A stretch of DNA of 64,000 nucleotides from Candidatus Eiseniibacteriota bacterium. Lineage in GTDB: Bacteria; Eisenbacteria; RBG-16-71-46; DASYSL01. Shown here piece after piece: positions 12,310 to 64,000 of the stretch (positions are counted from its first letter, which is position 1; every line of letters starts with the position of its first letter). The notes below the pieces were generated by a model, which was given only the letters and a program-made list of their open reading frames with translations, searched no databases and was not told where the DNA came from. The translations under genes were made by a program, and so were the position numbers. The stretch is from the NCBI GenBank assembly GCA_046598045.1, contig JBKJJJ010000174.1, positions 42,148 to 106,147 of the forward strand. The letters run 5' to 3'.

Positions 12310-12347
12310 GCGCTCCCAGCGGTGTTGCTCACGAGGGGAGGCTCCCG

Positions 12348-13640: not shown

Positions 13641-15140
13641 TGCGCCGCGGGCGATGTCGTGGCGTCCTCCGTGGTGGCCGCGAGTACTTACTCGTACAGC
13701 CTGTCACCAGCGACTTACTCGTGGCAGGTGTACGCCACGGATCAGTGCGGGCAATCGAGCGTCCTCTCACCCTCTCGAGCCTTCACCGTCGGAAACGGAT
13801 CAAGCTGTCCCGCGCCGAACAAGCTGATGCCAAGCGATGGCGCGGCGTGTCAACCGACCTCCGGCACTCTGCGGTGGGAGGCGGTCCCAGGGGCCACGGG
13901 GTACTTCGTCGACCTGCGATCCGGCACCTGCGATCACTTCAAGCCCAGTTCGACGCCGGTCCACGTGACAACGAACGCATACGACTATGCCGGGCTGCAT
14001 GCCGATGCGTCCTACTCTTGGGCTGTGAAGTCCGACTGTGCATGCGGGGCGTGTTCCACCTGTGCCAGCTTCAGGACAGCCGCGGATGCGTCCAGCTATC
14101 CTCCGCCCAAGTTGGCCTCCCCGGCGAACCTTGCCAAGAACATCCCAAGCAGCGGTACGTTGAGCTGGCAGGGCGTTCCCAATGCGGTGGGATATCGCGT
14201 ACAGATCGGAACGGCGTGTGGCACCGGGGCGGAGCAGGACGTCACCGCTCCGAGCGTACCCTACTCGGGCCTCGCCGAGGGAACAACGCACTATTGGAAA
14301 GTGCGCGCCAGATACGACTGCGGCGGGCTCGGATCGTACTCCAGCTGCTACAGCTTCACGACCGATCGCGTGACGGGTATCAATCGGGTCTACTTCCCGT
14401 CCGATCTCGCTTTCGCGCGAGGTCAGACGCACGCCTCGATCCCGGTGCGAGTCGAGAATCTGGGACTGATCGAGGGCGGGCAGATTACGGTGGAACTCAA
14501 TCCCGCGGTCTTCACCTATCGAGGATGTTCGCTTGCAGGCACGCGGGGCGACGGCGGAGCATCCCTGGTCGGTCAACTCGATGCGTCGCACACTCGAGTC
14601 CGGTTCACTCTCTCGTACTCGGCGACAGGGAGTTGCCCGCCATCCATTCCGGCGGGCCTCGGCGATCTGTTTGACATCCTGGTCGACGTCCCGGCCACGG
14701 CTCCGCTCGGCTCGACCGCGATCGGGCTCCCTTCGCCGGCCAAGCTTGATGCATGCGCCGATCACGGCACGCACTCGGTCAGCGCAGTGCTGCAGCCGGG
14801 TTCGGCCCGGATTGCCGAGTCGGTCGCCGTGGGAGATCCCCCGGCTGAGTCGCCTGAGCCGGGAAGGCTTCAGCTTCTCGCACCATTCCCGAATCCTGCT
14901 CGATCCGGCGCGATGATTCGATTCAGCGCTCCCGCGGCAGGCCGGGTAATCGTCACGCTCTACGACATCGCAGGGCGAGAGGCCGCCAGAATCGCCGATG
15001 AGGATTTCACAGCCGGCTGGCATGAGCTTCGCTGGGATGGCCGCGGGCTCAATGGGGTTCTCCTGGCGAGCGGGGTCTACGCGCTTCGCGTCAGCGGGGG
15101 CGGCCAGACGAGAATTCAGCACATGATCCTGATTCGCTGA
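13641..15140 (+). CDS. Continuation of the same secreted protein: FN3-like repeats and a C-terminal T9SS type-A / FlgD-Ig-like sorting domain
   Basis: Same frame as 12306..13640. Repeats LRWEAVPGATGYFVDL and LSWQGVPNAVGYRVQI. C-terminus LAPFPNPARSGAMIRFSAPAAGRVIVTLYDIAGREAA...WDGRGLNGVLLASGVYALRV matches the Por-secretion-tail / FlgD-Ig pattern. Confidence 0.55.
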   Translation, partial: CAAGDVVASSVVAASTYSYSLSPATYSWQVYATDQCGQSSVLSPSRAFTVGNGSSCPAPNKLMPSDGAACQPTSGTLRWEAVPGATGYFVDLRSGTCDHFKPSSTPVHVTTNAYDYAGLHADASYSWAVKSDCACGACSTCASFRTAADASSYPPPKLASPANLAKNIPSSGTLSWQGVPNAVGYRVQIGTACGTGAEQDVTAPSVPYSGLAEGTTHYWKVRARYDCGGLGSYSSCYSFTTDRVTGINRVYFPSDLAFARGQTHASIPVRVENLGLIEGGQITVELNPAVFTYRGCSLAGTRGDGGASLVGQLDASHTRVRFTLSYSATGSCPPSIPAGLGDLFDILVDVPATAPLGSTAIGLPSPAKLDACADHGTHSVSAVLQPGSARIAESVAVGDPPAESPEPGRLQLLAPFPNPARSGAMIRFSAPAAGRVIVTLYDIAGREAARIADEDFTAGWHELRWDGRGLNGVLLASGVYALRVSGGGQTRIQHMILIR

Positions 15141-15317
15141 CAAATACTCGCGGAATCGCGGTATTTCGTAACGCTCCGGGCACCCGCCGCGTTGCGGTCG
15201 CCCTGGTAAGGCGTCTTGACGGGGCCCCCGCGGGCAATAGTGTCGTTGTCCCCCCCGCTTTCCTCAGCACCCCAAACTAGGGGTCTCCAGGTTCCAGAGG
15301 AAGGAAGTGTTTCGACC

Positions 15318-16325
15318 ATGCCACTACGAGGCGCCTGCTCGGTCGTTGCCTGCGCGTTCGGCCTGTTGGCGGTTGGCCCGACGCTCTCGAGCGCGCAGTG
15401 TACCGGCGACGTCACCGACGACTTCGATGGCTCTACGCTTGGTCCGTTGTGGGCGAACGTTTCCCAGTGCGCAAGTAGCGTCACCGAGAGTGATGGGGTC
15501 CTCCATCTGTTCAAGCCCGACAACGGCCTCGGGTTCGCGATGGTACGTCTTGCGCCTGACAGGCTGCTGTGCGACGACTTCGATCTCGCAATCGACTACA
15601 CGCTGAGCATGCCGCCGGCGCAGGACATGGGAGGCAGCATCCATGGGACGCAGCTCTATACCGCGACCGGGACACTGGTCGCTGGCGCAGAGCGCTATAG
15701 GCAGGGGAGTACCTCATGCGTCTCGCCGCAGTATGACTCCTACAAGTTCTACACGACCGTGCCGGGGTGTCCGACGGATGCCATCTACCTTCCCACCTCA
15801 GCCGCGGCCGGAAGGTTTCGGCTCATCCGAACCGGCGGGACGATCGAAGCCTTCTATTGGAATGACACAGACTGGGTCCTGAGGATGAGTCGACCGATTA
15901 CGACGGCAGCTGTCTATCTTCAGCTCAACAGCGGCACGAACTTTAGCATTTCTCCGGGGTTGAAGGCCGCCACCGGCGGCACGTTCGACAATTTTCACGT
16001 GGGCCTGCCGAACCTGGCTGGTGTCGCGCCCGGGACCGGAGCTTCTGGGCTGGCCTGTTCCGTGCAGCGAAATCCGATGCCGCGCTCGATTCCGGTGCGG
16101 TTCGTCTTCGAAACTCCGCGTGATGGGCGAGTGACTCTGCGGATCTACAACGCAGGCGGAGCTCTTGTCGGGACGGCCCTGGACGAGGACCTTCCTTCGG
16201 GGGGTCACATCGCGAGCTGGAGTTCGACCTCTTCCGATGGCAGTCGGCTGGGCAGCGGTGTCTATTTTGCTCAGCTCGTCGCGAGCGGGCAGCGGGTTTC
16301 CACGCGAGTCGTCCTGCTTCCGTAG
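15318..16325 (+). CDS. Secreted concanavalin-A/LamG-like domain protein with C-terminal T9SS type-A / FlgD-Ig-like sorting domain
   Basis: ATG at 15318 after GAGGAAGGA. Signal peptide MPLRGACSVVACAFGLLAVGPTLSSA. DDFDGSTLGPLW jelly-roll motif. C-terminal RVTLRIYNAGGALVGTALDEDLPSGGHIASWSSTSSDGSRLGSGVYFAQL. Confidence 0.65.
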   Translation: MPLRGACSVVACAFGLLAVGPTLSSAQCTGDVTDDFDGSTLGPLWANVSQCASSVTESDGVLHLFKPDNGLGFAMVRLAPDRLLCDDFDLAIDYTLSMPPAQDMGGSIHGTQLYTATGTLVAGAERYRQGSTSCVSPQYDSYKFYTTVPGCPTDAIYLPTSAAAGRFRLIRTGGTIEAFYWNDTDWVLRMSRPITTAAVYLQLNSGTNFSISPGLKAATGGTFDNFHVGLPNLAGVAPGTGASGLACSVQRNPMPRSIPVRFVFETPRDGRVTLRIYNAGGALVGTALDEDLPSGGHIASWSSTSSDGSRLGSGVYFAQLVASGQRVSTRVVLLP

Positions 16326-46404: not shown

Positions 46405-46585
46405 ACGGTGCGAACAGTTTCGATCGGGTGCCCTGCAGCCAGGGGTGAAAAGGGAAGGGGGTGCGAATCCCCCACGATCCCGTCACTGTGATGGGCGAGC
46501 CGCGATTCCACGATGCCACTGGCCGCAAGGCCGGGAAGGCGGAACCGGCGCCGAGCCCTCAGTCAGGAGACCTGCCCGGTCCACG
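46405..46585 (+). promoter_or_regulatory. Cobalamin (adenosylcobalamin) riboswitch, Rfam RF00174-like
   Basis: Conserved elements in order: GGTGCC ... AGGGAA ... GGTGCGAATCC ... CACTGTGATGGG ... B12 box GCCACTGG ... GGGAAGGC ... AGTCAGGAGACCTGCC. It lies immediately upstream of a TonB-dependent receptor gene. Confidence 0.85.
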
Positions 46586-46713
46586 TTCCCGTGACTCTCC
46601 GCGAGAGAGAGGCTGGGCGATTTTCCCGTCCCGCCAAAGCGGGCGCCCGCCCGCCGCTCTCCCGTCGTGACGAGTCGCATGCCTGGACCAGCCACGAGGC
46701 GGGAGACCTCGTC

Positions 46714-48744
46714 GTGTCCTTCGTTCCCGCAATGGCATTGCTCGTGGCGCTCGCCTCCGGCGACAGCGTGCTCACGCTGCCGGGCGTCGAGGTGCGCGAC
46801 GCGCGCCCGCTCGACGACCCGGCGCTCCGCCGCGCCCCGGGGTTCGCGCGCTCGTACGACGTGACGCCGGCCTACGGCCGCCTCGGCACGGTGAGCGACC
46901 TGCTCGCGCGCGGCGTGGGCGTCCACGTGCGCCAGTTCGGCGGGCTCGGCGCGTTCAGCGCGGTGTCGATCCGCGGCTCCTCGAGCGCGCAGGTCGCGTA
47001 CTACCTCGACGGCGCTCCGCTCAACCAGGCGCAGTACGGCGTGGTCAATGCCGCCGACCTGCCGATCGAGGCGCTGTCGCGCATCGAGGTCTACCGCGGC
47101 GGCGCACCGCTCGCGTTCGATGCACCCGGGGGCGGCGTGGTCGAGCTGGTCACGCGCGACGACCCGGGCCGCTGGATGCGCGCCGACCTCGGCGGCGGCA
47201 GCTTCGGCACGCGCAAGCTGGACCTCGCATTGGGCGCGACCCGCGCGCGCACCACGCTCATGGCCGTCGTGCAGAGCCTCGCGAGCCACGGCGACTTCCG
47301 CTACCTCGACGACAACGCCACCGATGCCAACACGGACGACGACACGCTGCGCACGCGCGCGAACAACGCATTCGATTCTTACGCGGTCACCGCGCGCGTG
47401 GCGCAGGGCGTGGGCCCGGCACGGATCGCGCTGACACATGACCGCCTCGGCAAGCGCCAGGGCGTACCGGGCACGGGCGCGAACACCGCGCTCGCGGCGC
47501 GGCTGCGCACCGACCGCGCGGTGAGCGTGCTGCGCGCGGCCGCCGAGACCTGGCCGCTCACGCCCGTGCAGTCGTTCTTCTACGCGCAGCAACGCGACCG
47601 CTTCTCGGACCTCGCGCGGGAGTTGAGCGGGACGAAGCAGGACAACGACGATCACACCACGCGCTACGGGGCGCGCACCGAGGCTGCGCTTGCGCTGCCC
47701 GGCGCGCTCGGCGGCACGCATCGCCTCGCGCTGCTGGGCGAGGCGCGGCGCGAACGCTACACGCCGAAGATCAACCTGCCCGCGCCACGCGTGCTCGCCA
47801 CGTCGCAGCGCGAGGTCGCGATTTATGGCGCGGAAGATCGCTGGTCTCCGGGCCGCGGCCGGCTCGGGCTGACCGCGCAGGCCCGGCGCGAGCTGACGTT
47901 CGACGCGTTCCCCGCCGGACCGGCGTATCCGGGCGCGCTCCCGTCGCCGGCTGCTGACCGGACGATCCGCCTGACGCGCTGGACCGTGGCTGCGCACGTG
48001 GAGTTGGTGCGCGGCACGGCGGGGACGCTCGCGCTTCGCACCTCGCTCGCGCGGCTCGCGCGCACGCCCACGCTCGAGGAGCTGTTCGGCAACCGCGGGG
48101 GCGTGCACGGCAACCGCGACGCGCTGCCCGAGCGGGTGCTCACGCGCGACGCCGGGCTGACCGGCGCGTGGACGCTCGCGCAAGGCGGCGCGGCGCGGCC
48201 GCGCGCGCTCGAGGCCCAGCTGTCGGCGTACCGCTCGGACGCAGACGACTTGCTGGTGTTCATCCAGAACTCCGCGCGCACGTCGGTGGCGCAGAACGTG
48301 GCGGCGGCGCGGCTCGAGGGCATCGAGCTGGCGTCGCGCGCGGCGTGGGCGTGGGGCCTCTCCGCCGATCTTTCGTGGACGCGCCAGTGGACGCGCGACC
48401 AGGGGCAGGTCGCGTACTGGCGCGGCAAGGACCTGCCCGGCCGCCCGCGCGACGAGGCCAGCCTCGGGCTGTCGCTCGAGCGCGGCCCGGTGCGCGGCTT
48501 CGGCGAGCTGCACGCCACTTCCCCCTTCCATCTCGATCGCTACAACCAGGTCACGATCCCGGCACGCGCACTGGTCGACGTCGGCGCGTCGTACGCATTT
48601 GCCGGGCGCACCACCGATGTCGTCCTCGAATGCCGCAACGTGGGCGACGCGCACGTGCAGGACTTCGGCGGCTATCCCCTTCCCGGGCGCTCGTGGGCGC
48701 TGGGCATCCGTTTCCATCTCGATCGAAAGGCAGATCTCCCGTGA
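46714..48744 (+). CDS. btuB: TonB-dependent receptor, BtuB-like (vitamin B12/cobalamin outer-membrane transporter by riboswitch context)
   Basis: Signal peptide ..FVPAMALLVALASG. TonB box-like DSVLTLPGVEV. Plug-domain motifs (VSIRGSSSAQVAYYLDGAPL, IEVYRGGAPLAFDAPGGGVVELVTR). About 22-strand barrel length. The start is uncertain (GTG near 46714 or ATG 46732). Confidence 0.8.
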   Translation: MSFVPAMALLVALASGDSVLTLPGVEVRDARPLDDPALRRAPGFARSYDVTPAYGRLGTVSDLLARGVGVHVRQFGGLGAFSAVSIRGSSSAQVAYYLDGAPLNQAQYGVVNAADLPIEALSRIEVYRGGAPLAFDAPGGGVVELVTRDDPGRWMRADLGGGSFGTRKLDLALGATRARTTLMAVVQSLASHGDFRYLDDNATDANTDDDTLRTRANNAFDSYAVTARVAQGVGPARIALTHDRLGKRQGVPGTGANTALAARLRTDRAVSVLRAAAETWPLTPVQSFFYAQQRDRFSDLARELSGTKQDNDDHTTRYGARTEAALALPGALGGTHRLALLGEARRERYTPKINLPAPRVLATSQREVAIYGAEDRWSPGRGRLGLTAQARRELTFDAFPAGPAYPGALPSPAADRTIRLTRWTVAAHVELVRGTAGTLALRTSLARLARTPTLEELFGNRGGVHGNRDALPERVLTRDAGLTGAWTLAQGGAARPRALEAQLSAYRSDADDLLVFIQNSARTSVAQNVAAARLEGIELASRAAWAWGLSADLSWTRQWTRDQGQVAYWRGKDLPGRPRDEASLGLSLERGPVRGFGELHATSPFHLDRYNQVTIPARALVDVGASYAFAGRTTDVVLECRNVGDAHVQDFGGYPLPGRSWALGIRFHLDRKADLP

Positions 48745-50180
48745 ATCTCCGCCCGTCCCTCCTGGTCCTCCTGTTCCTCGGCGCGCTCGCGCCCGGCGCG
48801 AGCGCCGCCGAAACCCGCGCCTACGTGTACTGCACCGACTTCGGCTCCGGTGCGATCTCGACCGTCGAGTTCGGCCCGCCGCGCACCGCGATCAACAACC
48901 GGGCGAGCGTGGGCTCCGACGCGGTCGTGCGCTGGTTCGGCGGGCAGCTCTACGTGGTCGAGCGCTTCGGCCTCGACAACATCCGCATCCTCGACCCGGC
49001 GACGTTCGCCGTGGTGCGGCAGTTCTCGGTCGGCAACGGCTCGAACCCGAACGACATCTACGTGGTCTCGCCGACCAGGGCCTACGTCACGCGTTATGAC
49101 AAGCCGGACCTGTGGATCGTGAACCCCTCGACCGGCGCGTTCGTGAGCAGCATCTCGCTGGCACCATTTGCCGATCCCGACGGCCTGCCCGAGATGAACC
49201 GGCTCACCTACCACGCGGGGCGCCTGTTCGTGTCGTGCCAGCGGCTCAATCGCGACAACTTCTTTTCGCCCACGGACTCGAGCCTCGTGGTCGTGATCGA
49301 CACGGAGACCAACCAGTTCGTGGACGCGGACCCGACCCTACCCGGCGCACAGGGCATCCTCCTGCCGCGCACGAACCCGACGACCGAGTTCGCCACCACG
49401 CCCGAGGGCGACTTCCTGCTCGGCTGCACCGGGGCTTACAGCGTGAACGATGGCGGCGTGGCGCGGATCGACCCGCGCGCGCTCACGTCGACCACGGTCG
49501 AGGTGACCGAGGGAGAGCTCGGCGGCGACGTCAACGACGTGGCGATCGGCCCGGGGGCGAGCGGCGTCGCGCGCGCGTTCTGCGTCGTGAGCGATCCGGC
49601 GTTCAACACCAACCTCGTGTCCTACCAACGCTCGGGCGCGCCGTCGGTGGCGACGGTGTTCCCCGGTGTCGGCTTCGTGCTCGGGGACGTCGAGGTCAAC
49701 GACCGGGACGAGGTGTGGCTGTGCGATCGCACCGGGACCGGACCCGGCGTGCGCGTGTTCGACGCGGTCACGAACGCGCAGCTCACCGCGAGCGCGATCT
49801 TCACCGGGTTGCCGCCCTCGGACATCTCGTTCGACGTGGTCGAGCCCGTCGGCGTTCCGGGCCCGCCGCCCGCAGCCGCGGTCAGCGTGGCGTTCGCGGG
49901 CATCGCCCCGAACCCGGCGGTCGGGGGCGCCCCGACGACGATACGCCTGCGCGCAGAGGTGGCCGGCGCGCTGCGCGTCTCGATCGTGGACGCCGCAGGC
50001 CGCCTGCTCCGGACCTGGCGGCTCGAAACCGCCGCCGGGGAGCGGGTCCTGGCCTGGGACGGCCGGGACGAGGCGGGCCGGGCGGCCCCGGCGGGCGTGT
50101 ACCTCGTCCGCGCCGCGCTCGACGATCAGCCGGGCGTCGCGAGCGCGCGACTGGTCCGACTGGCCCCGGCGCGGCTATAA
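48741..50180 (+). CDS. Secreted beta-propeller-like protein with T9SS type-A / FlgD-Ig-like C-terminal sorting domain, co-transcribed with btuB (candidate surface cobalamin-binding accessory protein)
   Basis: GTG at 48741 overlapping the btuB TGA (GTGA). Signal peptide VNLRPSLLVLLFLGALAPGASAA. Repeated Y-V-V / Y-V-T blades. C-terminus IAPNPAVGGAPTTIRLRAEVAGALRVSIVDAAGRLLRTWRLE...WDGRDEAGRAAPAGVYLVRA. Confidence 0.65.
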   Translation: MNLRPSLLVLLFLGALAPGASAAETRAYVYCTDFGSGAISTVEFGPPRTAINNRASVGSDAVVRWFGGQLYVVERFGLDNIRILDPATFAVVRQFSVGNGSNPNDIYVVSPTRAYVTRYDKPDLWIVNPSTGAFVSSISLAPFADPDGLPEMNRLTYHAGRLFVSCQRLNRDNFFSPTDSSLVVVIDTETNQFVDADPTLPGAQGILLPRTNPTTEFATTPEGDFLLGCTGAYSVNDGGVARIDPRALTSTTVEVTEGELGGDVNDVAIGPGASGVARAFCVVSDPAFNTNLVSYQRSGAPSVATVFPGVGFVLGDVEVNDRDEVWLCDRTGTGPGVRVFDAVTNAQLTASAIFTGLPPSDISFDVVEPVGVPGPPPAAAVSVAFAGIAPNPAVGGAPTTIRLRAEVAGALRVSIVDAAGRLLRTWRLETAAGERVLAWDGRDEAGRAAPAGVYLVRAALDDQPGVASARLVRLAPARL

Positions 50181-54550: not shown

Positions 54551-55702
54551 ATGGGTGCGCCCGCATCGGCCGATTTGGATCGCGATTTGCGCGTGTTTTT
54601 CGCGCAGGGCCTCGCCGCGCCCGCCGACGAGCGCGCGTTCAACGACCTCGCGCTGCGCGTGTTCGCCTACCAGTACGAAGCGCTCGCACCCTACAAGGCG
54701 TACTGCCAGAAACGGGGCGCGCTGCCCCAACGCCTGCGCACCTGGGCCGAGATCCCGCCCGTGCCGGCGCAGGCGTTTCGCGACCTGCGCCTGTGGTGCG
54801 ACGACGACGGCGCGCCGGCCGCGGTGTTCCGGACCTCGGGCACCACGGCGCAAGGCCGTCCCGGCGAACACTACATGAGCGCCAGCGGGCTTGCACTCTA
54901 CGACGCCTCGCTCCTGCCCACGTTCCGCGCGTTCGTCCTGCCGGAGCTCTCCGACGAGGCGGACGCGCGCTCGACGATTGCGCTGCTCGCGCTCGGACCG
55001 CCGCCCGCCGAGGCGCCGCACTCCTCGCTCTGGCACATGGTGGGCGTCGCCGGCCGCGCGCTGTTCGAGCGCCCCGCGCGCTGGTTCCTGCCCGCTGCCG
55101 GCCTCGACGCGCCCGGCCTCGAGCGCGCGTTCGCCGAGGGTGGCGCGGCGTGCCTGGTCGCGACCGATCTCGCGCTCGACGCGTATCTCGAGTCCGCGCT
55201 GGCGCGCGGCTTCCGGGTCGCGCTGCCCGCCGGGTCGCGGCTCGTCCACACGGGCGGAGCCAAGGGCAAGCGGCGCGGGGTCGCGCCGGAATCGCTCTAC
55301 GTTCGGGCGCGGGCCGTGCTCGGCCTCGCGCCGGAGCGCTGCGTCAGCGAATACGGCATGACCGAGCTCGCCTCCCAGTTCTATGAGGACACGCTGCGCG
55401 ACACCCCAGCGTCCGCGCCGCCGCGGCTCAAGCACGCGCCGCCCTGGCTGCGCGCGATCGTAGTCGACGCCCGGACGCTCGAGCCGGTCGCGCCCGGCAG
55501 CTCCGGCCTCCTGCGCCTCTTCGATCTCGCGAACCGCGGCTCGGTGATGGCGATCCAGAGTGAGGACCGCGCCGCCTGTGCGACCGACGAGGAACTCGGC
55601 AGCTCTCCGGGGTTGGGCGCGCGGCCGTTCCGCCTGCTCGGGCGCGCGCTGGGCACCGAGCCCCGCGGCTGCTCGCTCGCCGCCGAGGAGGCGCTCGCGT
55701 GA
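54551..55702 (+). CDS. luxE: LuxE-family acyl-protein synthetase (fatty-acid activating, adenylate-forming)
   Basis: About 380 aa. N-terminal LuxE-like region (..FAYQYEALAPYKAYCQKRG..). Phosphate-binding motif FRTSGTTAQGRPGEH. The stop overlaps the next gene (ATGA). Confidence 0.65.
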   Translation: MGAPASADLDRDLRVFFAQGLAAPADERAFNDLALRVFAYQYEALAPYKAYCQKRGALPQRLRTWAEIPPVPAQAFRDLRLWCDDDGAPAAVFRTSGTTAQGRPGEHYMSASGLALYDASLLPTFRAFVLPELSDEADARSTIALLALGPPPAEAPHSSLWHMVGVAGRALFERPARWFLPAAGLDAPGLERAFAEGGAACLVATDLALDAYLESALARGFRVALPAGSRLVHTGGAKGKRRGVAPESLYVRARAVLGLAPERCVSEYGMTELASQFYEDTLRDTPASAPPRLKHAPPWLRAIVVDARTLEPVAPGSSGLLRLFDLANRGSVMAIQSEDRAACATDEELGSSPGLGARPFRLLGRALGTEPRGCSLAAEEALA

Positions 55703-57021
55703 GCCTCGCGCCCGATCCGCTCGTCGACTCGCCGGTCGCGCATCCGGTCACCGCCGCTCAGGTGGGCGCGATCTGGGAGGAGCTGTCGGACGCGCGGGGC
55801 GCGCTCGATCACCGGCTCGCCGCGGATCTCCTGCCCGCGCTCGTCGGCGCGATGCGCCGGCTGACCGCGCCGACGGGGCCCTACCGGCAGCGCCTGCTCG
55901 ATGGGCTCGCGCAATCGACCGGCTGGAACAGCGGCGCGATCGAGGAGGGCCTGGCACGCTTCACACGCGCCTACACCGAGAACGCGCTGCGGGCAGCGAT
56001 CGTGCGCGCGGTCGGGTCGCTCGAGACGCTCGATCGGCGCGGGCAGCGGCGCGCAATGAGCCCGCGCGGCGTGTTCCTCGCGCTCGCCTCGACCATTCCG
56101 TGGGCCGGCATCGAGTCGCTCACGTGGGCACTGCTCGCGCGCTCGACCTGCCTGGTGCGCGTCTCGGCGGGAGAGCCGTGGACCGTGCCTTTGTTCCTCG
56201 ATGCGCTCGCCGAGGAGTACCCGCCGCTGGCGCGCACTGCAGCCGCGCTCTACTGGCCGTCGGACGACGCCGAGGCGCACGGCGCCGCGATCGCGTACCC
56301 CGAGGCCGCGGTGGTCTACGGCGATGACGACTCGGTGGCGACCTGGCGTGCGCTCGCCGCCCGGCGCGCGAACCCGCCGCGCGTGATCGAGCACGGGCAC
56401 CGCATGTCGGTCGCGATCGTGGGCCGCGGATCGCTCGCGCCCGGTGTCGCCGACCAGGTCGCCGACGTGCTCGTGCGCGAAGCCGCGCTCTACGACCGGG
56501 ACGGCTGCCTGTCGCCGACGATCGCCTATCTCGAGGCTTCGGGCGCGATCCGCCCCGAGGATTTCGGCGAGCGCTGTGCGCGCGCGCAGGCGCGCTGGGC
56601 CGAACGCTGGCCCGCCCGGCTGCCCGACGACGCGCAGGCCTCGGCCACGCACCAGGCGCGCGGCACGTGCGAGCTCGCGGGCGGGCAGGTGTGGGCCGCG
56701 CCCGACGCGACGTGGACAGTGGCGCTCGATCGCCGCGATCCGCCGCCCGCGCCGGTCGCCGGGCGCTTCCTCTGGCTCCACCAGTTCACCGACTTCGAGG
56801 GGCTGCGCGCGCAACTCTCCTCCTGGGGCGACCGGCTCTCGACCATCGGCGTCTCGGCCTGGAAGGCGCGCGACGCCGAGCTGATCACGATCATCGGCCC
56901 GAGCGGCGCGACGCGCGTCTGCCCGCTGGCCACGATGCAGGATCCACCGCTGGACCGATTCCACGACGGGCGCTCCGAGCTCGCCGACCTGCTGCGCATT
57001 CGCGACTGGGAGCTTGCATGA
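55699..57021 (+). CDS. luxC: LuxC-family acyl-CoA / acyl-protein reductase (fatty aldehyde-forming)
   Basis: About 440 aa, the typical LuxC length, with a conserved Cys in ..LYDRDGCLSPTIAYLE.. Translationally coupled downstream of the luxE-like gene. Followed by another 4-nt overlap. Confidence 0.6.
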   Translation: MSLAPDPLVDSPVAHPVTAAQVGAIWEELSDARGALDHRLAADLLPALVGAMRRLTAPTGPYRQRLLDGLAQSTGWNSGAIEEGLARFTRAYTENALRAAIVRAVGSLETLDRRGQRRAMSPRGVFLALASTIPWAGIESLTWALLARSTCLVRVSAGEPWTVPLFLDALAEEYPPLARTAAALYWPSDDAEAHGAAIAYPEAAVVYGDDDSVATWRALAARRANPPRVIEHGHRMSVAIVGRGSLAPGVADQVADVLVREAALYDRDGCLSPTIAYLEASGAIRPEDFGERCARAQARWAERWPARLPDDAQASATHQARGTCELAGGQVWAAPDATWTVALDRRDPPPAPVAGRFLWLHQFTDFEGLRAQLSSWGDRLSTIGVSAWKARDAELITIIGPSGATRVCPLATMQDPPLDRFHDGRSELADLLRIRDWELA

Positions 57022-57419
57022 CCGCCTGCCTGCGCTGTGGAAAGCCTGCCGATGGCCGGTTGCGCGCCGCGATCTGGGAAGAGGAAGAGAAGGGCCGCCT
57101 CGGCGCGCGACCCGTGACGCTGTGCGCCGCCTGCCACAAGGCGTTCCTCAAGGGGAACGTCACGCGCGTCGAGATCGGCCGCGCCTATCACGCGGCGAAA
57201 GGCATCGAGCCGCGCGGCTGGATCGGGCGCATCGACCGCGACCTGCTGCTCAACATCGTGTGCCTCGAATGTGGCGTGATCCTGCCGCTCGAGTCGGCCG
57301 ACGACGCGCCGGCCTCGGACCACGACGCGCTGCCCGACACGCGCTGCCGCGAGTGCGGCACGACCAACCGCTTCGCCCGCCGCGGCGAGCGCTGGATCAC
57401 GGCCGAGATCGTGCCGTGA
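57018..57419 (+). CDS. Cys-rich zinc-ribbon protein (four CxxC pairs)
   Basis: ATG 57018 overlapping the luxC TGA. CLRCG ... CAAC ... CLECG ... CRECG spaced as two zinc ribbons. Confidence 0.5.
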   Translation: MTACLRCGKPADGRLRAAIWEEEEKGRLGARPVTLCAACHKAFLKGNVTRVEIGRAYHAAKGIEPRGWIGRIDRDLLLNIVCLECGVILPLESADDAPASDHDALPDTRCRECGTTNRFARRGERWITAEIVP

Positions 57420-58060
57420 GCAAGGTCGTCCCGCTCGAGTTCCCGTACTACTTCGTCTGCCTGGTGGGCGTGATGCTGGCGTGGGTGGGCTTCACGCTCG
57501 CGTTCGTCGTGTTCAAGCCGAAGACGCCGAAGGCCGCCCAGTCGCCCGCGGGGCCCCAGGAGAAGCCGGAGATCAAGACCCGCGACCGGCGCTCGCTCGG
57601 CGGCGTCCTGCTGCAATCGGTCGGCTATTTCCTGATGTGGCTCTCGTTCCGCCCGCCGTTCCCGACGCTCTCGCTGTTGCCCGCCCCGCTTGCGCTCGCA
57701 CTGGCGGCCTTCGCGGTCGTGCTCGCGTGGGCGGCGGCGAGCTTTGCGTTCTGGGCGCAGCGCACGCTCGGCAAGGAATGGAGCTTCCAGGCGCGCCTGG
57801 TGGAGGGGCACCGCCTGGTGAACACGGGCCCGTACGCGATCGTGCGCCACCCGATCTACACGGCGATGTGCGGCATGTGGCTCGCGACCGCGCTCGCGAT
57901 CGCGCGCCCGTGGGGCATCGTGCTCGGCGTGGTGCCGATGTTTCTCGGCACGCTGATCCGCGTCAAGCTCGAGGACGCGCTGCTGCGCGGCGCGTTCGGC
58001 GACAAGTTCGAGGAGTGGGCGAAGCGGGTGCCGGCGGTGGTGCCGATCCCGAAGGGCTAG
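57416..58060 (+). CDS. ICMT/PEMT-family membrane methyltransferase (second paralog in the window)
   Basis: GTG 57416 overlapping the upstream TGA. TM helices. ICMT signature GPYAIVRHPIYTAM and EDALLRGAFGDKFEEW. Confidence 0.75.
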   Translation: MSKVVPLEFPYYFVCLVGVMLAWVGFTLAFVVFKPKTPKAAQSPAGPQEKPEIKTRDRRSLGGVLLQSVGYFLMWLSFRPPFPTLSLLPAPLALALAAFAVVLAWAAASFAFWAQRTLGKEWSFQARLVEGHRLVNTGPYAIVRHPIYTAMCGMWLATALAIARPWGIVLGVVPMFLGTLIRVKLEDALLRGAFGDKFEEWAKRVPAVVPIPKG

Positions 58061-58085: not shown

Positions 58086-59801
58086 TCAGCGCAGAACGAC
58101 GAACTTGGCTCCGTCGGACATCTCCCCGCTCTGATCGCGCACCCGCGCGAAGTACACACCCGGACGGATCCCACCCCCCTGGAGTGGAATCTTCAGCGTC
58201 TGTGCGTCACGATCGGCTCGTTGGACCCTTGCCTGCTGAACTACGCGGCCCGCGAGATCATAGATCGTGACCGTGAGTTCGGATCCGATCGCATCGCTCA
58301 AATCAAGCGTGAGCGCGTCGGTCGTGAAGCCCCGCGGACGAGCCTCGAAGTGCCGCTTGCGGCCGCCTCCCGGGGAAAATCGCGCAATCGGGCTGAGCCA
58401 CTCGAACCGCGAGTCGACGCTCTCGCGGCGAATGCGGTACGAAATGTCGTCCCTCTGAGACCACCCCGAACGATTATCGAGGTCCGTCCAACTCATCGCG
58501 AGACTTGCTCCCGCCTGGAGCCGGGCGACCGCTGCGAATTCGCCAGCCCCGGTTCGCCGCAACACCGACCACCACGTCCCGGGAGCCAAGGTCGAGAGCG
58601 TCCAGGTCAATCGGGGATGTCCCTGGGAGACGTCCACCGCGGGAACGCTCGTGGTCGCGGAGGTATGGGTGTGCGTATAGCGGAAAGGCTGAAAGGATTC
58701 GGACCACGCGACCCAGGCGTCGCCGTTGCGGTCACGTCCGATCGACGGAACGGCGCCATATCCACTGCTGTAGAACTGATCGCCCGGATCCCAGCCATGA
58801 TCATTGGGGAAGTTGACGACGACACCGGCGGAGCCGTCGAGATAGTTGGTGTACGCCCACGTCACGAGCGGTCGGTAGGCGGCGTCCCGGCTCAGGTCGG
58901 TCGAGAGGGCCTCGGCCCCGCGCGGCGTCGTGATCGCAGGACAGAACAGCGTCTCCGGGGCCGACCACACGTGGCCGTCGAACCGCCGGAGAAAGACGCT
59001 CTGTTCCCCGCTGCTCCACGTCATCCAGGCGCCGCCACCGGCACTAAATCGAAGTCGGGGACCGCCCGCGAACCCGGATGTGAGGATTTCGGGAGAGCGC
59101 TCCCACCGGCTTCCGCGAAGAACTCCCCAGTCAAGCGGCTCTCCGTTTCCAGCCCATGCCATGAGCGCGGTCGTGTCGTCGAGCGCGACCAGGTTGAGGC
59201 CGTAGTTGCCGATCGCTCCCGTCGAGACTTCATTCCATCGGTCGCGCTCATCGGAATAGAACAGGCGGAGAACACCACGGTCCTCGATCGCCACCCATCG
59301 TCTAGGATCTCGAAACGCGCCACCGTACGAGGTTCGAAATTGGCCGACTTGAGCCACGATCTCGGGCGGGGTCGGGTGATCGTCGATCACCTCGGAAACG
59401 AAAAACGTGTGGTCCGTCGCGTAGGATCCGCCAGTGTACACGAGGGGATAGCGTCCGACGGGCGCGTCGACAGCATACAGTCCGAGCGGGTTCGCCCCAA
59501 GGGTCCACCACGGCTCCCACAAGCTCCCAAGCCACTTGTACGCAAGTCCGTCGTCCTGCTGCGAGTCCTGATACAGAACCCCCGTTCCGATCAGCAGAGG
59601 ACTTCCGGTGGCGGTCATCTCGACCCGCGGGACCACGAGTTCATTGAACCCGGAAACCTGTAGCACCTCGACGTCTCCCCACTCCCTGCCGGCAGGAGCC
59701 GCCACCGCTAGCATAGGAACCAACCAAGCAACGAGTCCGAGGCCTCTGACAAGAAGGCCGACGGCATCGCATTTCGACTTCCGCCCCATCATGACCTCCA
59801 C
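58086..59801 (-). CDS. Secreted protein with T9SS type-A / FlgD-Ig-like C-terminal sorting domain
   Basis: Signal peptide LVAWLVPMLAVAAPA. The large N-terminal domain has Trp-rich beta-propeller-like repeats. C-terminus LTLDLSDAIGSELTVTIYDLAGRVVQQARVQRADRDAQTLKIPLQGGGIRPGVYFARV. Confidence 0.6.
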   Translation of the reverse strand: MEVMMGRKSKCDAVGLLVRGLGLVAWLVPMLAVAAPAGREWGDVEVLQVSGFNELVVPRVEMTATGSPLLIGTGVLYQDSQQDDGLAYKWLGSLWEPWWTLGANPLGLYAVDAPVGRYPLVYTGGSYATDHTFFVSEVIDDHPTPPEIVAQVGQFRTSYGGAFRDPRRWVAIEDRGVLRLFYSDERDRWNEVSTGAIGNYGLNLVALDDTTALMAWAGNGEPLDWGVLRGSRWERSPEILTSGFAGGPRLRFSAGGGAWMTWSSGEQSVFLRRFDGHVWSAPETLFCPAITTPRGAEALSTDLSRDAAYRPLVTWAYTNYLDGSAGVVVNFPNDHGWDPGDQFYSSGYGAVPSIGRDRNGDAWVAWSESFQPFRYTHTHTSATTSVPAVDVSQGHPRLTWTLSTLAPGTWWSVLRRTGAGEFAAVARLQAGASLAMSWTDLDNRSGWSQRDDISYRIRRESVDSRFEWLSPIARFSPGGGRKRHFEARPRGFTTDALTLDLSDAIGSELTVTIYDLAGRVVQQARVQRADRDAQTLKIPLQGGGIRPGVYFARVRDQSGEMSDGAKFVVLR

Positions 59802-59831
59802 ATTCTTGGCATCGCCATCAATTCTAGCTTG

Positions 59832-59842
59832 CCCCCCCCCCC
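59832..59842. repeat. Homopolymeric C11/G11 tract in a divergent promoter region
   Basis: GCTTG-CCCCCCCCCCC-TAATCG lies between the - strand gene start at 59801 and the + strand ATG at 59984. Confidence 0.7.
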
Positions 59843-59983
59843 CTAATCGAGCGCAGAATGTTTGCCGAACTCCGTCGGCCGGTTAGCCACCCCCCGGCTC
59901 AGCCTTCCATAGCCGCAAGTGCCCTTCCGACTGCGCCCTGCAAATCGCCCTGGGAAACGCCCCTCCCGCCTTGGAGGTTCGAC

Positions 59984-62900
59984 ATGGACGTCAAAGTTCC
60001 CTCCTCAGCAACTGCGCTCGCCCTGGCGGCGGTGCTGCTCGTTTCAAGTGCAGAAGGCTCGGGGACTGGTATAAGCGTCGCCGGCGACGCTGTGACCACC
60101 TCGTCTACGACCGACACGCTCTTCTTTCCTTACAGGCCGAAGGTGACCGGAACGCAGTCTCGATATACGAGAGACTTGGAATTTCAGCTCTCTTCGCGAT
60201 ATTCGATTGGCCGAGGGGATGCCACTCCCGGACGAATCGGATCCGATAATTTGACGCTGATAAATTTCGGCGCGACTCTCACCGACTCGATCGGCAAGAA
60301 CCCGTTCAACGCGCCATACTCGGATTTGCATCTCGGCTACGACTATTTTTCCAGGACAGGCCAGCAGTACGATCCAAACCCATTCAACCCAGTCGGCTTC
60401 ACTCTCCCCATCAGCGACGGGAGCTACCCGACGGTCGACAAGGCCCATGTCGACTTCTACATCTTCGAACCGGGGCAGACCCAGGCCCTGAACTTCAGAG
60501 GTAGTGGAAGCGCTCCGTCGTTCTTCACGACACCGAAGGAAGATTCCTCGACCGGGCATTGGTCGTCGCCGACGAACTTCACCGTCCTTCCGAAGAATTC
60601 GGCCATGGGTGTCGGCCCGTCTCGCGCTGCGCTTGCGGATGTCGGGGGGACCGGCTGGACGCGGCCCGGACAGGCAGCCAACTGGACCTTCACGCATGAA
60701 TTTCAGCACCTCGTTTCTGGAGGCTCAGCCTCTACGGGGAATGCGCTGGAGGAGCTCTTCTCCGCCGGCGCTGAGGTGCTCACCGGGGACTTGCCGAGTG
60801 ATGCAGCAGCCTTCGATTACGCGTACACTTGGAGCTTATTGGTCAACGACAATGTCGGTCTGGGTGGCGTGAGAAGTGCCGGGGCGAACTACGCGGGCAG
60901 GCGACTCCTCGCGGCGTATCTCTTGTACAACTATCGCAATCAGGATACGACGGCGACGCTGAACGTGGGCTCGACGGTCGGGGGATTTGCGGACGACCTC
61001 TTCTATCGCTGGGCGCGGGAATCGTTACGAACTTTCGGCAGCCTCCAGGGCCTGCTCTCGAACGCCAGTTGCTACACTTGTTCTCTCCGCCCCTCGTTGA
61101 GTCCCGGAGGGCAACCGCTCTCGGACTACGATCGCCTGCAACTCGTGATTCACCAGATGAGGGTGGCCAGCTTCGTCAACAACCCGTTCCTCGCGGCCGA
61201 CGCGAGCGGTTACGGCCCGTACGGCTATCCGCCCCGGTTCGGCTTCTCGCCCGCGGCCGACGTGGGCGCCTGGCGGGACATCGATCCCAACGGCCCTAAC
61301 GTCGTCGCCATTCCGCAGGAAGTGACGGCGCGGCCGGGTTGGGTCTCGCGCGACACGGTCCTCTCGAAGGACCGCTCGAGGGACGGGGTCTCCTACCCGC
61401 TCGTTCTGCAGCCGTATGGGTCGGAGTACTGGGTGATCCGGTCCACTTCCGGCATCTCCGCGGGCACGGACTTGATGGTTCGGGTGGAGTCCGACAGCAT
61501 TTTTCGGACGTCGACGCTCTTGGGGCTGTACTGTCTTCCGCTTGGCAAGCTGGATGCCCGGCTGATGGCGACCGTGGTGGGCTATACGCAGCAATCCGAC
61601 AGCCTCTGGGCTCACCCCGAGTACGCGGGAACGGTCCTCGACACGCGTTGGGTGGACGTCGACAGCCTCGCCGGCGAGTTCGTCTTCTCCCTGCCGAACT
61701 TCGGCACGCAGTACCGTGCTGCCGTCCTCACCCTGACCCTCGGAGACGGGCCGTCGTTCGGGCTCAACGCGGCCAGTAGCTTTAACACGTATCAGGAGGC
61801 CGTGCATTACCGCCTCAATCTCGGGCTGCGCAAGTCTCCACCCGCCGGGTCCGACCCCGCGGCCTTAGTCGAATCGTCGGTGACCGAGGACTATCCCGCC
61901 TGGTCCCCCAATGGGACCGAGATCGCCTACGAGTCTGCCGATGCCCCGAACTCGAGAATCATGAGAAAGCCGGTCGCCGGCGGTGCGGCCACGGTCCTTG
62001 TCAGCGCGTCGAATTCCCAGCACACGCCCGATTGGTCCCCGCGCGGCGACCGCGTCGCCTTCGCCGAAGATGCCGCAGGGGGCAATCGCCACATCCGCTC
62101 GTACAACTTGACCACGCAGGTCGCGACAGACCTGACCACGGGAACGGTCTCCGATCTCTACCCGGTCTTCCAACCCAACGGCGAGCGGCTCGCCTACGTG
62201 CGCACCATCCCCGGCAGCGGCCAGTGGACGATTCGCCGTGTCAACGTGGACGGAAGCAACGATGCGGCGATCCTGACGACCGCGCTGAGCACGGCCATCG
62301 TGTCTCCGCGCTGGACCCCGAACGGCCAGGCCGTCTACTTCGTCAGCAACAGTCGGCTCTATTCCGTCCCCGTGAGCGGGGGAACAGCCACTCCTCAGGA
62401 CTCTCTCGGTCGAGATATCGCTACGTTCGATCTGCCGCGGGGGAGCGGTCGCCTGCTGATCGAGAACGCCGCCTCCCTGCGCTGGATCTGCGATGACGCA
62501 AACGCTCCAGCATTCATGCCCTATCGCCGCATCGCCCTGAGGGACACGCTCGCGAGCCCGAAGGATACGGAGATGCGCTGGTATCGCACCGGCGCCAGCT
62601 TCTGGAGCCCCCGCTACTCGTTCGACAACACGCGCATCGCCTACCGCTCGGACCAGAACGCCGCCTCAGGCGGGGATCTCTATATCGGCCAAGCCGTCTA
62701 CGATCACGCGCCGACGTTCGTGAGCACGGTCACGGACACGACGGTCGGCATGGGGATCGGATTGAGCCTGAGCCTCGCCGCCAATGACCCGGACGGGGAT
62801 GCCCTCACCTACTCCGGGGCCTACTTTCCAGCGGGGGCGAGCCTGATCGGCAACCTCTTCTCCTGGCCGAGCCCGGATACGACCGGCGGCCCGGTTTCGG

Positions 62901-64000
62901 TCGTCCTTCGAGCCCTGAGCCCGGGGGGCGCGCTCGCCAGCAAGGTGGTCAAGATCACGGTCGTCCCCAGGCCGGTGGCCGTTGCCACTCTGGTGGCCGA
63001 TGCGGGCAGGACCACCGCGGCTGCCGCGTGGTCCGAGCCCAATCAGCCACAGGGGCAGGCAACTTCCTACGAATTGCGCTACCTGATTAACACGACGATC
63101 ACCGAGAACAATTTCTCGACGGGGACGGTCGTCTCCCAGTCGGAGGTCCCCGGACCTGCGGGAACACCGCACTGTGTCCTGATCCCGGGCATTGCTTCGT
63201 GCAAGAATCTCTCGATCGCAGTGAGGACATGGAGGAATGGCATTCCCTCCACGATCAGCAATGTCGCGAGCGCGAGCACCGCGTGTTCGGGATCCCTTGA
63301 GGTGAGCTGCGGCGACTTCGGGCTGTGGGGTGGAGGAGGTGGCGGCGGGTTCTTGCGGGCCGGCGGTACGCGCACCGCTTCGACCTCGGGTTCCCCCGGC
63401 TCGGCCGTCTCGAACGCCACTTCGGCCTCGGAAAACTCCATACTCGGCGACGTCCACGGAACATCCAGGGCGGACCTTCTGCGGCTGCCCACCCCGATCG
63501 AGCCCGACCACGGCGAGTACGCGATCCATGTGCGAAGGAACGACGGCCGGACGATGGACCTCGACCAGGTCGCTCTGCTTGCGGTGGATCACGCGGACGG
63601 CGAAGCGGCCATCGCATCGAACGACGGCGTGCTGATCGGCACATGCGCGGGAGTCGCTTCGATTCGCGACCTGCTCGGGCAGGTCGGTTCCGATGCCGCA
63701 GGACAGCTCTCCGATGGTGGGATCGTGCTCGGACGGGAGAATGCTCTCACCATCGAACTGGACGACCGGGAACCGTCGTCGGTGCTCGTGATCGACTGCG
63801 TTGCCCCGGCGGCGGAGGTCGTGCGCGATTCAGCAGGCGTTGCCGTCCAGATTCCGACCGGCGACGGCGACTGGGGGACGATCGACCTGGTGCGGCCACG
63901 TGCGGCGGCGGATCGGAGGGCCGTCGACCTGCGAGGGTCGCACAGCGCACGCCTCGTGGCACTCGGGAAATACACGATTCTGCGGGTTCAGCGTCTGGCC
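59984..64000 (+). CDS. Very large secreted multidomain protein, 3'-truncated by the window edge (over 1338 aa): HExxH gluzincin-like metallopeptidase region, PD40/TolB-like beta-propeller repeats, cadherin-like and FN3-like domains, and a poly-Gly linker
   Basis: The ORF runs from ATG 59984 (GGAGG 8 nt upstream) in frame 2 to the window end and is absent from the supplied track. Signal peptide MDVKVPSSATALALAAVLLVSSAEG. FTHEFQHLVSGGSASTGNALEEL (HExxH with a downstream Glu). Five WSP-x-G-x-x-IAY/F PD40-like repeats (DYPAWSPNGTEIAYES, HTPDWSPRGDRVAFAE, LYPVFQPNGERLAYVR, VSPRWTPNGQAVYFVS, WSPRYSFDNTRIAYRS). NDPDGDALTYS cadherin-like motif. GGGGGGG linker. The 5' 400 nt is markedly lower in GC than the surroundings. 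Confidence 0.7.
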   Translation, partial: MDVKVPSSATALALAAVLLVSSAEGSGTGISVAGDAVTTSSTTDTLFFPYRPKVTGTQSRYTRDLEFQLSSRYSIGRGDATPGRIGSDNLTLINFGATLTDSIGKNPFNAPYSDLHLGYDYFSRTGQQYDPNPFNPVGFTLPISDGSYPTVDKAHVDFYIFEPGQTQALNFRGSGSAPSFFTTPKEDSSTGHWSSPTNFTVLPKNSAMGVGPSRAALADVGGTGWTRPGQAANWTFTHEFQHLVSGGSASTGNALEELFSAGAEVLTGDLPSDAAAFDYAYTWSLLVNDNVGLGGVRSAGANYAGRRLLAAYLLYNYRNQDTTATLNVGSTVGGFADDLFYRWARESLRTFGSLQGLLSNASCYTCSLRPSLSPGGQPLSDYDRLQLVIHQMRVASFVNNPFLAADASGYGPYGYPPRFGFSPAADVGAWRDIDPNGPNVVAIPQEVTARPGWVSRDTVLSKDRSRDGVSYPLVLQPYGSEYWVIRSTSGISAGTDLMVRVESDSIFRTSTLLGLYCLPLGKLDARLMATVVGYTQQSDSLWAHPEYAGTVLDTRWVDVDSLAGEFVFSLPNFGTQYRAAVLTLTLGDGPSFGLNAASSFNTYQEAVHYRLNLGLRKSPPAGSDPAALVESSVTEDYPAWSPNGTEIAYESADAPNSRIMRKPVAGGAATVLVSASNSQHTPDWSPRGDRVAFAEDAAGGNRHIRSYNLTTQVATDLTTGTVSDLYPVFQPNGERLAYVRTIPGSGQWTIRRVNVDGSNDAAILTTALSTAIVSPRWTPNGQAVYFVSNSRLYSVPVSGGTATPQDSLGRDIATFDLPRGSGRLLIENAASLRWICDDANAPAFMPYRRIALRDTLASPKDTEMRWYRTGASFWSPRYSFDNTRIAYRSDQNAASGGDLYIGQAVYDHAPTFVSTVTDTTVGMGIGLSLSLAANDPDGDALTYSGAYFPAGASLIGNLFSWPSPDTTGGPVSVVLRALSPGGALASKVVKITVVPRPVAVATLVADAGRTTAAAAWSEPNQPQGQATSYELRYLINTTITENNFSTGTVVSQSEVPGPAGTPHCVLIPGIASCKNLSIAVRTWRNGIPSTISNVASASTACSGSLEVSCGDFGLWGGGGGGGFLRAGGTRTASTSGSPGSAVSNATSASENSILGDVHGTSRADLLRLPTPIEPDHGEYAIHVRRNDGRTMDLDQVALLAVDHADGEAAIASNDGVLIGTCAGVASIRDLLGQVGSDAAGQLSDGGIVLGRENALTIELDDREPSSVLVIDCVAPAAEVVRDSAGVAVQIPTGDGDWGTIDLVRPRAAADRRAVDLRGSHSARLVALGKYTILRVQRLA

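Follow-up and report, generated by a model that had tools for sequence, protein, structure and literature searches.

Metallopeptidase family M30, to which hyicolysin and the lugdulysin of Staphylococcus lugdunensis (PDB 7bb8) belong, is marked by an HExxH motif with a downstream Glu and is placed by MEROPS in the gluzincin subclan MA(E) (PMC3890501). In Bacteroidota, secreted proteins such as mirolase and the metallopeptidases described by the models T9SSA_dep_M36 and T9SSA_dep_M6i combine a signal peptide, a catalytic or pseudo-catalytic zincin domain, immunoglobulin (Ig)-like modules and a type A C-terminal domain (CTD) of the type IX secretion system (T9SS). At the level of expression, phase variation through promoter homopolymers is known from the poly-G/C spacers of Neisseria porA, opc and fetA and from the poly-C of Bordetella fim, and the overlapping divergent promoters of Haemophilus hifA-hifB contain repeats; such promoter-repeat contingency loci have been documented mainly in host-adapted pathogens. 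Here we describe a giant gene that starts at position 59984 of a 64,000-nucleotide stretch of contig JBKJJJ010000174.1 from a Candidatus Eiseniibacteriota bacterium (assembly GCA_046598045.1), hereafter the window. Its product is a new family of a known kind, the secreted gluzincin-type T9SS cargo, and its regulatory feature, a homopolymer in the promoter, is of a type already known, met here in a new setting.

The overall best explanation of these data, to which we assign a probability of about 0.7, is a gene for a secreted, T9SS-sorted zincin-like protein with a homopolymer promoter and putative switching. The giant protein shares with M30 the HExxH motif and downstream Glu of subclan MA(E) and, by prediction, secretion. 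However, it is only 13–17% identical to M30 and has no Pfam M30 or PDB sequence match; the matched lugdulysin chain has 360 residues, against 1520 here, where six more types of module and a tail for T9SS are added, and the hosts are Firmicutes rather than an uncultured phylum in the FCB (Fibrobacteres-Chlorobi-Bacteroidetes) group. The protein resembles the Bacteroidota T9SS metallopeptidases in its set of parts, but their M36 and M6 catalytic domains are unrelated to its own in sequence, it contains an inserted PD40 propeller and sandwiches resembling carbohydrate-binding modules (CBM), and the phylum is Eisenbacteria. As in the pathogen promoters, 9–15 identical bases separate a -35-like from a -10-like element in the space between two divergent genes, next to a gene for a surface or secreted protein, and the arrangement recurs over paralogs with differing run lengths. 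In contrast to those host-adapted pathogens, the bacterium here is uncultured and apparently environmental, and its assembled spacers are mostly 19–20 nt.

The gene, its tail and its predicted peptidase domain

Reading frame 2 of the forward strand runs without a stop for 1339 codons from the ATG at 59984 to the last base of the window (59984–64000), as the original prediction had stated. The supplied track shows only frame-shifted or antisense open reading frames (ORFs) over this region, and the reason proposed for the omission was correct, because the ORF lister leaves out ORFs that run off an end. A protein search returned an identical protein of 1520 residues (P0001; NCBI and a Logan record; 113,290-nt contig), and the Logan contig L001, which equals the window over 4169 nt, supplies the missing 3′ end. 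With P0001 and L001 the proposed extension could be made, and the ORF ends in TAA at 1520 codons; codons 1–1339 of 1520, or 88% of the whole, are inside the window, the remaining 546 nt with the stop lying beyond it. A GGAGG Shine-Dalgarno sequence (59973–59977, +) precedes the ATG by 6 nt, and most homologous loci have GGAGG at a comparable position. The open frame thus belongs to a genuine gene on the chromosome of a member of Candidatus Eisenbacteria (FCB superphylum), and the very large multidomain protein that had been foreseen, predicted to be secreted, is real, an identical full-length product being encoded on public contigs. Each of the motifs listed for it (FTHEFQH, the WSPxG-type repeats, NDPDGDALTYS and GGGGGGG) was found in the translation.

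The true C-terminus, which lies outside the window, carries the T9SS tail whose presence the original prediction had proposed to check. Residues ~1431–1520 (+ strand) form a T9SS type A CTD, with scores above the cutoff for both TIGR04183 (28 against 23) and FlgD_ig (35.2 against 27), and the predicted fold resembles the CTDs of PorU, PorZ and mirolase. The NCBIfam T9SS M36 and M6-like models matched only tails and not the catalytic domain. The window contains four further CTD-bearing ORFs, including the divergent partner gene described below, which suggests that a T9SS-type pathway may exist in this genome; a literature search found no paper joining Eisenbacteria with type IX secretion. At the other end, residues 1–25 (MDVKVPSSATALALAAVLLVSSAEG; 59984–60058, +) are a predicted Sec-type signal peptide, read by eye from the translation as a hydrophobic N-terminus that ends in AEG, and the N-termini of the homologues are comparably hydrophobic. 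The giant protein would then be exported by Sec and sorted by a T9SS-type pathway to the cell surface or the medium, where its zincin domain could cleave peptide or protein substrates.

This zincin-like, gluzincin-type domain comprises residues ~45–445 (60116–61318, +) and has no match to a curated family. Its HEFQH motif (H238, E239 and H242; 60695–60709, +) is followed by a helix with E257 and E264 (ExFSAGAE; 60752–60775, +), candidates for the third zinc ligand and a second-shell Glu, at H242+15 and H242+22, respectively. All five residues are invariant in an alignment of 15 homologues. Among 133 sequences of the wider family, H238 is kept in 131, E239 and H242 in 132 each, E257 in 123 and E264 in 119. 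An AlphaFold2 model of the N-terminal 600 residues, built on the alignment (predicted template modelling score 0.76; mean predicted local distance difference test score, pLDDT, 65.5), has the HExxH motif in one helix, with the two Glu residues in the helix that follows, and Foldseek matched the model to lugdulysin (7bb8_A, M30) with a probability of 1.0. The N-terminal domain of ~400 residues is thus predicted to fold like the gluzincin peptidases, with M30 lugdulysin as the closest. The HExxH…E zinc signature of the original prediction is therefore present and near-invariant in the family, on a fold predicted to be that of a zincin.

Sequence searches gave no such assignment. The N-terminal 600 residues had no meaningful match in Pfam, NCBIfam or the PDB sequences, whether the query was the sequence itself, a profile or each homologue in turn; Pfam Peptidase_M30 matched neither the giant protein nor any of the 15 homologues at E values up to 10, and the family profile found zero matches among PDB sequences. 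Judged by the model, the domain is a zincin family outside all curated profiles that is recognisable only by its fold. The proposed affinity to M6 or M60 peptidases is rejected: the catalytic region has no profile match, and the HExxHxxGxxD motif of M6 is absent, H242 being followed by LVSGGS with no Asp at +9, while the M6-like T9SS model matched the tail only. The nearest fold is instead M30, so that of the peptidase assignment the metallopeptidase part stands, as M30-like by fold, whereas the M6/M60 part does not.

The family is almost confined to one candidate phylum. A scan for the N-terminal domain with one genome per species gave 28 loci, almost all in metagenome-assembled genomes (MAGs) of Candidatus Eisenbacteria/Eiseniibacteriota, the exceptions being one bin labelled Phycisphaerae and one labelled Gemmatimonadales; some MAGs hold 2–4 family loci each. 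With the profile of this domain, no more than 245 representatives of clusters were recovered at E ≤ 0.001 from 1.84 billion proteins. The closest relatives are 45–48% identical over the full length and the 15 closest homologues 33–48% overall; the nearest, P0002 and P0003, cover 98–99% of the query and share its N-terminal subfamily-specific segments. A peptidase-like family that existing profiles do not cover is thereby brought to light, and the several paralogs per genome suggest that it is important in the processing of extracellular polymers. Six more distant relatives (P0125, P0127, P0129, P0134, P0142 and P0158) join the zincin-like domain to a right-handed beta-helix of the NosD/pectate-lyase type in place of the propeller, and four of them (P0127, P0129, P0134 and P0142) have the FlgD_ig/T9SS tail.

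Upstream and divergent to the giant gene lies a partner gene of ~570 codons (58086–59792, −), whose product begins with a segment of hydrophobic character and ends in a weakly matching tail of T9SS type (Por_Secre_tail 21.5 bits, under the cutoff; E 2e-5 with our own CTD hidden Markov model, HMM). No curated family, Pfam included, matches the partner protein above its cutoff, and PDB sequences give no match either; it is 40% identical to the corresponding neighbour in L002. A tblastn search recovered homologues of the partner at 35 of 54 loci; in all 22 loci with both start codons mapped they lie upstream and divergent; in L010, exceptionally, the homologue lies downstream of the family gene. 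This conserved arrangement makes the giant gene and its partner a two-gene module.

A homopolymer in the putative promoters of the family

A C12 homopolymer (59832–59843, +) is located 140 nt 5′ of the ATG, in what would be the spacer of the promoter, and is the sole run of at least 8 nt in the 64-kb window; in first-order Markov simulations a C or G run of at least 12 nt appeared in 0.5% of windows. We scanned 374 kb, made up of the window together with 27 genome loci, for homopolymers at thresholds of 9 and 8 nt. Nineteen of the 20 runs of at least 9 nt fall 90–330 nt upstream of a family gene start, at 16 of the 28 loci, although this zone makes up 1.6% of the sequence scanned (binomial P ~1e-33); at the threshold of 8 nt the zone holds 23 of 27 runs, at 19 of the 28 loci. 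Several of the counted runs come from L026, where they adjoin a gap in the scaffold, and an artefact may account for part of them. The homopolymer is a conserved, family-associated promoter feature and not a product of chance.

The surroundings of the tract are as regular as its position. The repeated base is C, G or A and the length 7–19 nt; CTTG(AC) precedes the tract by 0–9 nt on the gene strand in 19 of 20 tract-bearing promoters, and an A/T-containing -10-like hexamer stands 3′ of it. In the window, the -35-like hexamer TTGCCC (59829–59834, +) is part of this CTTG(AC) box, and the putative -10-like hexamer CAGAAT (59854–59859, +) gives the best score with a position weight matrix (PWM), at a spacer of 19; most tract-bearing promoters have their best -10 at a spacer of 19–20. 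The distance from the tract to the family start is narrow (124–198 nt in most loci), whereas that to the partner start is loose (-20 to 172 nt), which assigns the tract to the promoter of the giant gene. Tract-less paralogs (L007, L045-52 and L055) have TTGACA or TTGACT, a spacer of 16–17 nt and a -10-like hexamer, and the CTD-protein gene of the window that starts at 15318 has a promoter-like site, TTGACG-N16-TAGTGT. Since CTTGAC-type boxes thus occur with tract-less and other CTD genes, CTTGAC looks like the general -35 box of the lineage. No other run of at least 8 nt lies near any of the window's four other CTD-bearing ORFs, the partner included.

Based on the above data, we propose that transcription would start from a sigma-70-like promoter in which C12 forms most of the spacer between -35 and -10. 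Slipped-strand changes in run length would alter the length of this spacer and so switch or tune expression, and each paralog could act as an independently variable contingency locus. The occurrence of such runs across the family suggests on/off switching, and phase variation of these promoters is plausible, if at somewhat less than even odds. The phase-variation-type homopolymer named by the original prediction is accordingly real as a family-associated promoter feature and, as a switch, putative; a homopolymer immediately after a -35-like box offers a testable lead to possible stochastic promoter switching in an uncultured phylum. Among the papers listed in a literature search on phase variation, homopolymers and contingency loci, none mentioned Eisenbacteria. 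The wider notion of an Eisenbacteria phasome, with several paralogous modules of peptidase and partner per genome, each switched independently by slippage of its promoter run, is doubtful. If true, secreted and surface proteins would vary in combinations in a phylum that is uncultured and apparently environmental, and promoter-repeat contingency loci would be at work beyond host-adapted pathogens too.

Several further features of the upstream regions were noted. In L003, L006, L012, L016, L017, L018 and L025, the tract has CTTG(A) ahead of it and (T)CAAG behind it, a short inverted repeat that could be an operator, a hairpin or a coincidence. In L026 (2849–3030), runs of C19, G25, G14, G8 and C16 are crowded into 200 nt beside a stretch of N, which may be an extreme form of the tract or an artefact of assembly. 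The sole run of at least 9 nt outside the upstream zone is a C10 (L002, 2974–2983) within the coding region of a partner homologue. For the 5′ untranslated region of the giant gene, Rfam finds nothing, and its predicted folding shows no gain over shuffled sequences (z 0.77).

Weighing the alternatives

A number of observations count against the explanation favoured here. On the side of the protein, the giant sequence matches no peptidase family, Pfam M30 included, the confidence of the N-terminal model is moderate (mean pLDDT 65.5), and among the 133 family sequences E264 is replaced by Q in 8 and E257 by H in 9, so that some paralogs may be inactive. On the side of the promoter, a standard sigma-70 scan, limited to spacers of 16–18, calls no site here, and the -10 hexamer rests on the PWM; 9 of the 28 scanned loci have no run of at least 8 nt in the upstream window, and three more paralog loci (L030, L045-52 and L055) are tract-less. 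No polymorphism of tract length was seen, C12 being present in three of three near-identical contigs from three samples (90% clusters of P0012), and two probable ortholog pairs, L020/L032 and L006/L025, keep their total spacer length while tract purity differs.

These last observations bear on the strongest alternative, in which the homopolymer is a fixed part of the promoter, a rigid spacer or site-spacing element, and expression is conventionally regulated; we consider it a live possibility, at clearly less than even odds. Besides the invariant C12, it gains from the two ortholog pairs, which hold CTTG and the motif downstream of it 15 nt apart despite an interrupted or shortened tract, a constancy that is equally compatible with a static spacer, and from the narrow clustering of most tract-bearing spacers at 19–20 nt. 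However, the tracts share no property beyond their homopolymeric nature, the same place being taken by C, by G or by A over lengths of 7–19 nt, and the tract-less paralogs manage with ordinary spacers of 16–17 nt. The lack of polymorphism is a weak negative, because contigs are consensus sequences that give the majority allele, and minority lengths could still exist. Several assemblies, moreover, break at the tract: five contigs begin on it or within ~70 nt upstream, with the tract at position 1 (L001), 7 (L024), 44 (L006), 56 (L022) or 72 (L017) from the contig start, and a sixth, L015, begins at about the expected tract position. Either heterogeneity among reads or difficulty in sequencing fits these contig ends.

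Other sources contributed little on tract length. Pattern scans of metagenome contigs with the flanks of the window tract and with those of L032/L020 gave no matches, though L032-34 are Joint Genome Institute (JGI) contigs, and the P0011/P0164, P0026/P0168 and P0005 clusters, together with P0010, are tract-less paralogs that carry no information on it. An apparent coding-tract frameshift in the P0166 alleles was discarded, since the choice of start by the gene caller alone explains it. It is worth noting that the gene of P0164, a tract-less paralog with the promoter region CTTGACATATCAAG, is polymorphic at about codon 41 among the contigs of a single population cluster (L035-L039 against L040-L044): TAA and TAT are each present in half of them, a nonsense allele right after the signal peptide.

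Returning to the favoured explanation, its peptidase part must be set against the improbable case that the zincin-like domain is a scaffold without catalytic activity and that the protein serves as an adhesin at the surface or in binding. Modules of a binding type (propeller, Ig, FN3 and CBM-like) do make up the bulk of its length, active peptidase families provide no sequence match, the NCBIfam model for a T9SS-dependent M6-like inactivated metalloprotease matched the tail weakly, and E264 is replaced by Q in some paralogs. Yet HExxH, with its catalytic Glu, is kept in 131–132 of 133 sequences despite identities of 33–48% among the 15 closest homologues, and H155, D157, E186, D187 and Y312 are near-invariant as well. 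This is the pattern of conservation expected from purifying selection on an active site.

The original prediction had also read the AT-richer 5′ part of the gene as a hint of recent acquisition or mosaicism. The compositional observation holds: nowhere in the window are 300 nt poorer in GC than inside 59911–60640, where the content drops to 0.533 (mean 0.688, standard deviation 0.044), and the GC content at third codon positions (GC3) is 0.61 over codons 1–100 and ~0.8 later, which ties for the lowest among 25 family genes. The interpretation does not hold, and we regard acquisition as very unlikely. All nine homologous loci tested have a lower GC content in the N-terminal domain (0.57–0.69, rising 3′-ward) than over the locus (0.68–0.72), and the mean GC3 of the 25 family genes also dips over codons 1–100 (0.755 against ~0.81 later), their GC content at codon positions 1 and 2 being lowest in codons 101–200. 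The low 5′ GC content is therefore a family-wide trend and no sign of recent acquisition. The coverage of 98–99% by P0002 and P0003, with the shared N-terminal segments, and the synteny of the divergent partner in other MAGs point the same way; other stretches of the window, moreover, reach down to 0.573, and two of these overlap genes for other CTD proteins.

That the tract association is an artefact of assembly or sequencing, such as poly-G from two-colour chemistry, is scarcely credible, since, although several tracts lie near contig ends and the C19, G25 and G14 runs of L026 adjoin a scaffold gap, the window tract is internal to a 113-kb contig and flanked by two genes, its C12 is agreed by three independent sample assemblies, position and CTTGAC box recur across the assemblies and assemblers of many studies, and A-tracts, which poly-G could not produce, occur as well.

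Accessory modules and neighbouring genes

The part of the giant protein between the zincin-like domain and the tail consists of modules that may hold polymeric substrates or the cell surface. Residues 445–617 (61316–61834, +) form, in the C-terminal third of the N-terminal model, a beta-sandwich that resembles the PPC and collagen-binding domains of collagenases. It is followed by a PD40 (TolB-like) beta-propeller at residues ~620–900 (61841–62683, +), which scores 42.1 bits with PF07676 against a gathering cutoff of 20.9, in agreement with the original prediction; in a PDB sequence search, TolB chains were the best matches (E 1e-13). The protein is nevertheless not TolB, as the equivalog model TIGR02800 gave 78.4 bits where 343 are needed, and the propeller is a single internal module of a secreted protein. 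For this reason the label 'Tol biopolymer transport system component', which some source databases attach to homologues, is a wrong guide to their nature.

The NDPDGD motif belongs to an Ig-like module at residues 908–992 (62705–62959, +). The cadherin-like NDPDGDALTYS had been reported correctly as a motif, but a cadherin identity did not follow: Pfam Cadherin has no match in the giant protein, and the module reaches 14.3 bits with Big_9, under the cutoff of 23.6. Its D-P-D/E-G motif is kept in the 15-sequence alignment, and two homologues have a precomputed He_PIG annotation. The FN3-like modules of the original prediction fare similarly, with weak, sub-threshold matches to FN3 domains of the PDB (E 0.019–0.5) at residues ~1000–1100 (62981–63283, +); from the alignment, this module is seemingly triplicated in P0014. 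The Gly7 linker is present at residues 1116–1122 (63329–63349, +), with pLDDT below 50 in a second model. This model, of the C-terminal 416 residues (pLDDT 75.8), is all-beta, and a CBM-like beta-sandwich region at residues ~1150–1410 begins at 63431, runs to the last base of the window (64000, +) and past it, and is followed by the T9SS CTD.

Just 5′ of the module lie genes for a LuxC-type acyl-CoA reductase (55699–57021, +) and an ICMT/PEMT-family methyltransferase (57014–58060, +), which look like ordinary housekeeping context. Further away, three ORFs on the + strand carry the same T9SS/FlgD_ig-type tail (13641–15137, 15210–16322 and 47958–50177; E 1e-10 to 5e-19 with our own HMM). The region 12306–15140 (+) contains an ORF of 444 residues and a CTD-bearing ORF of 493 residues in one frame, split by a single TAG (13638–13640) that falls inside an apparently repeated FN3-like motif (…PGATNYHVIV*); a pseudogene, a sequencing error or read-through may account for it. 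Lastly, a cobalamin riboswitch (RF00174, 119.7 bits; 46409–46593, +) is located ~1.4 kb 5′ of the CTD-bearing ORF at 47958–50177.

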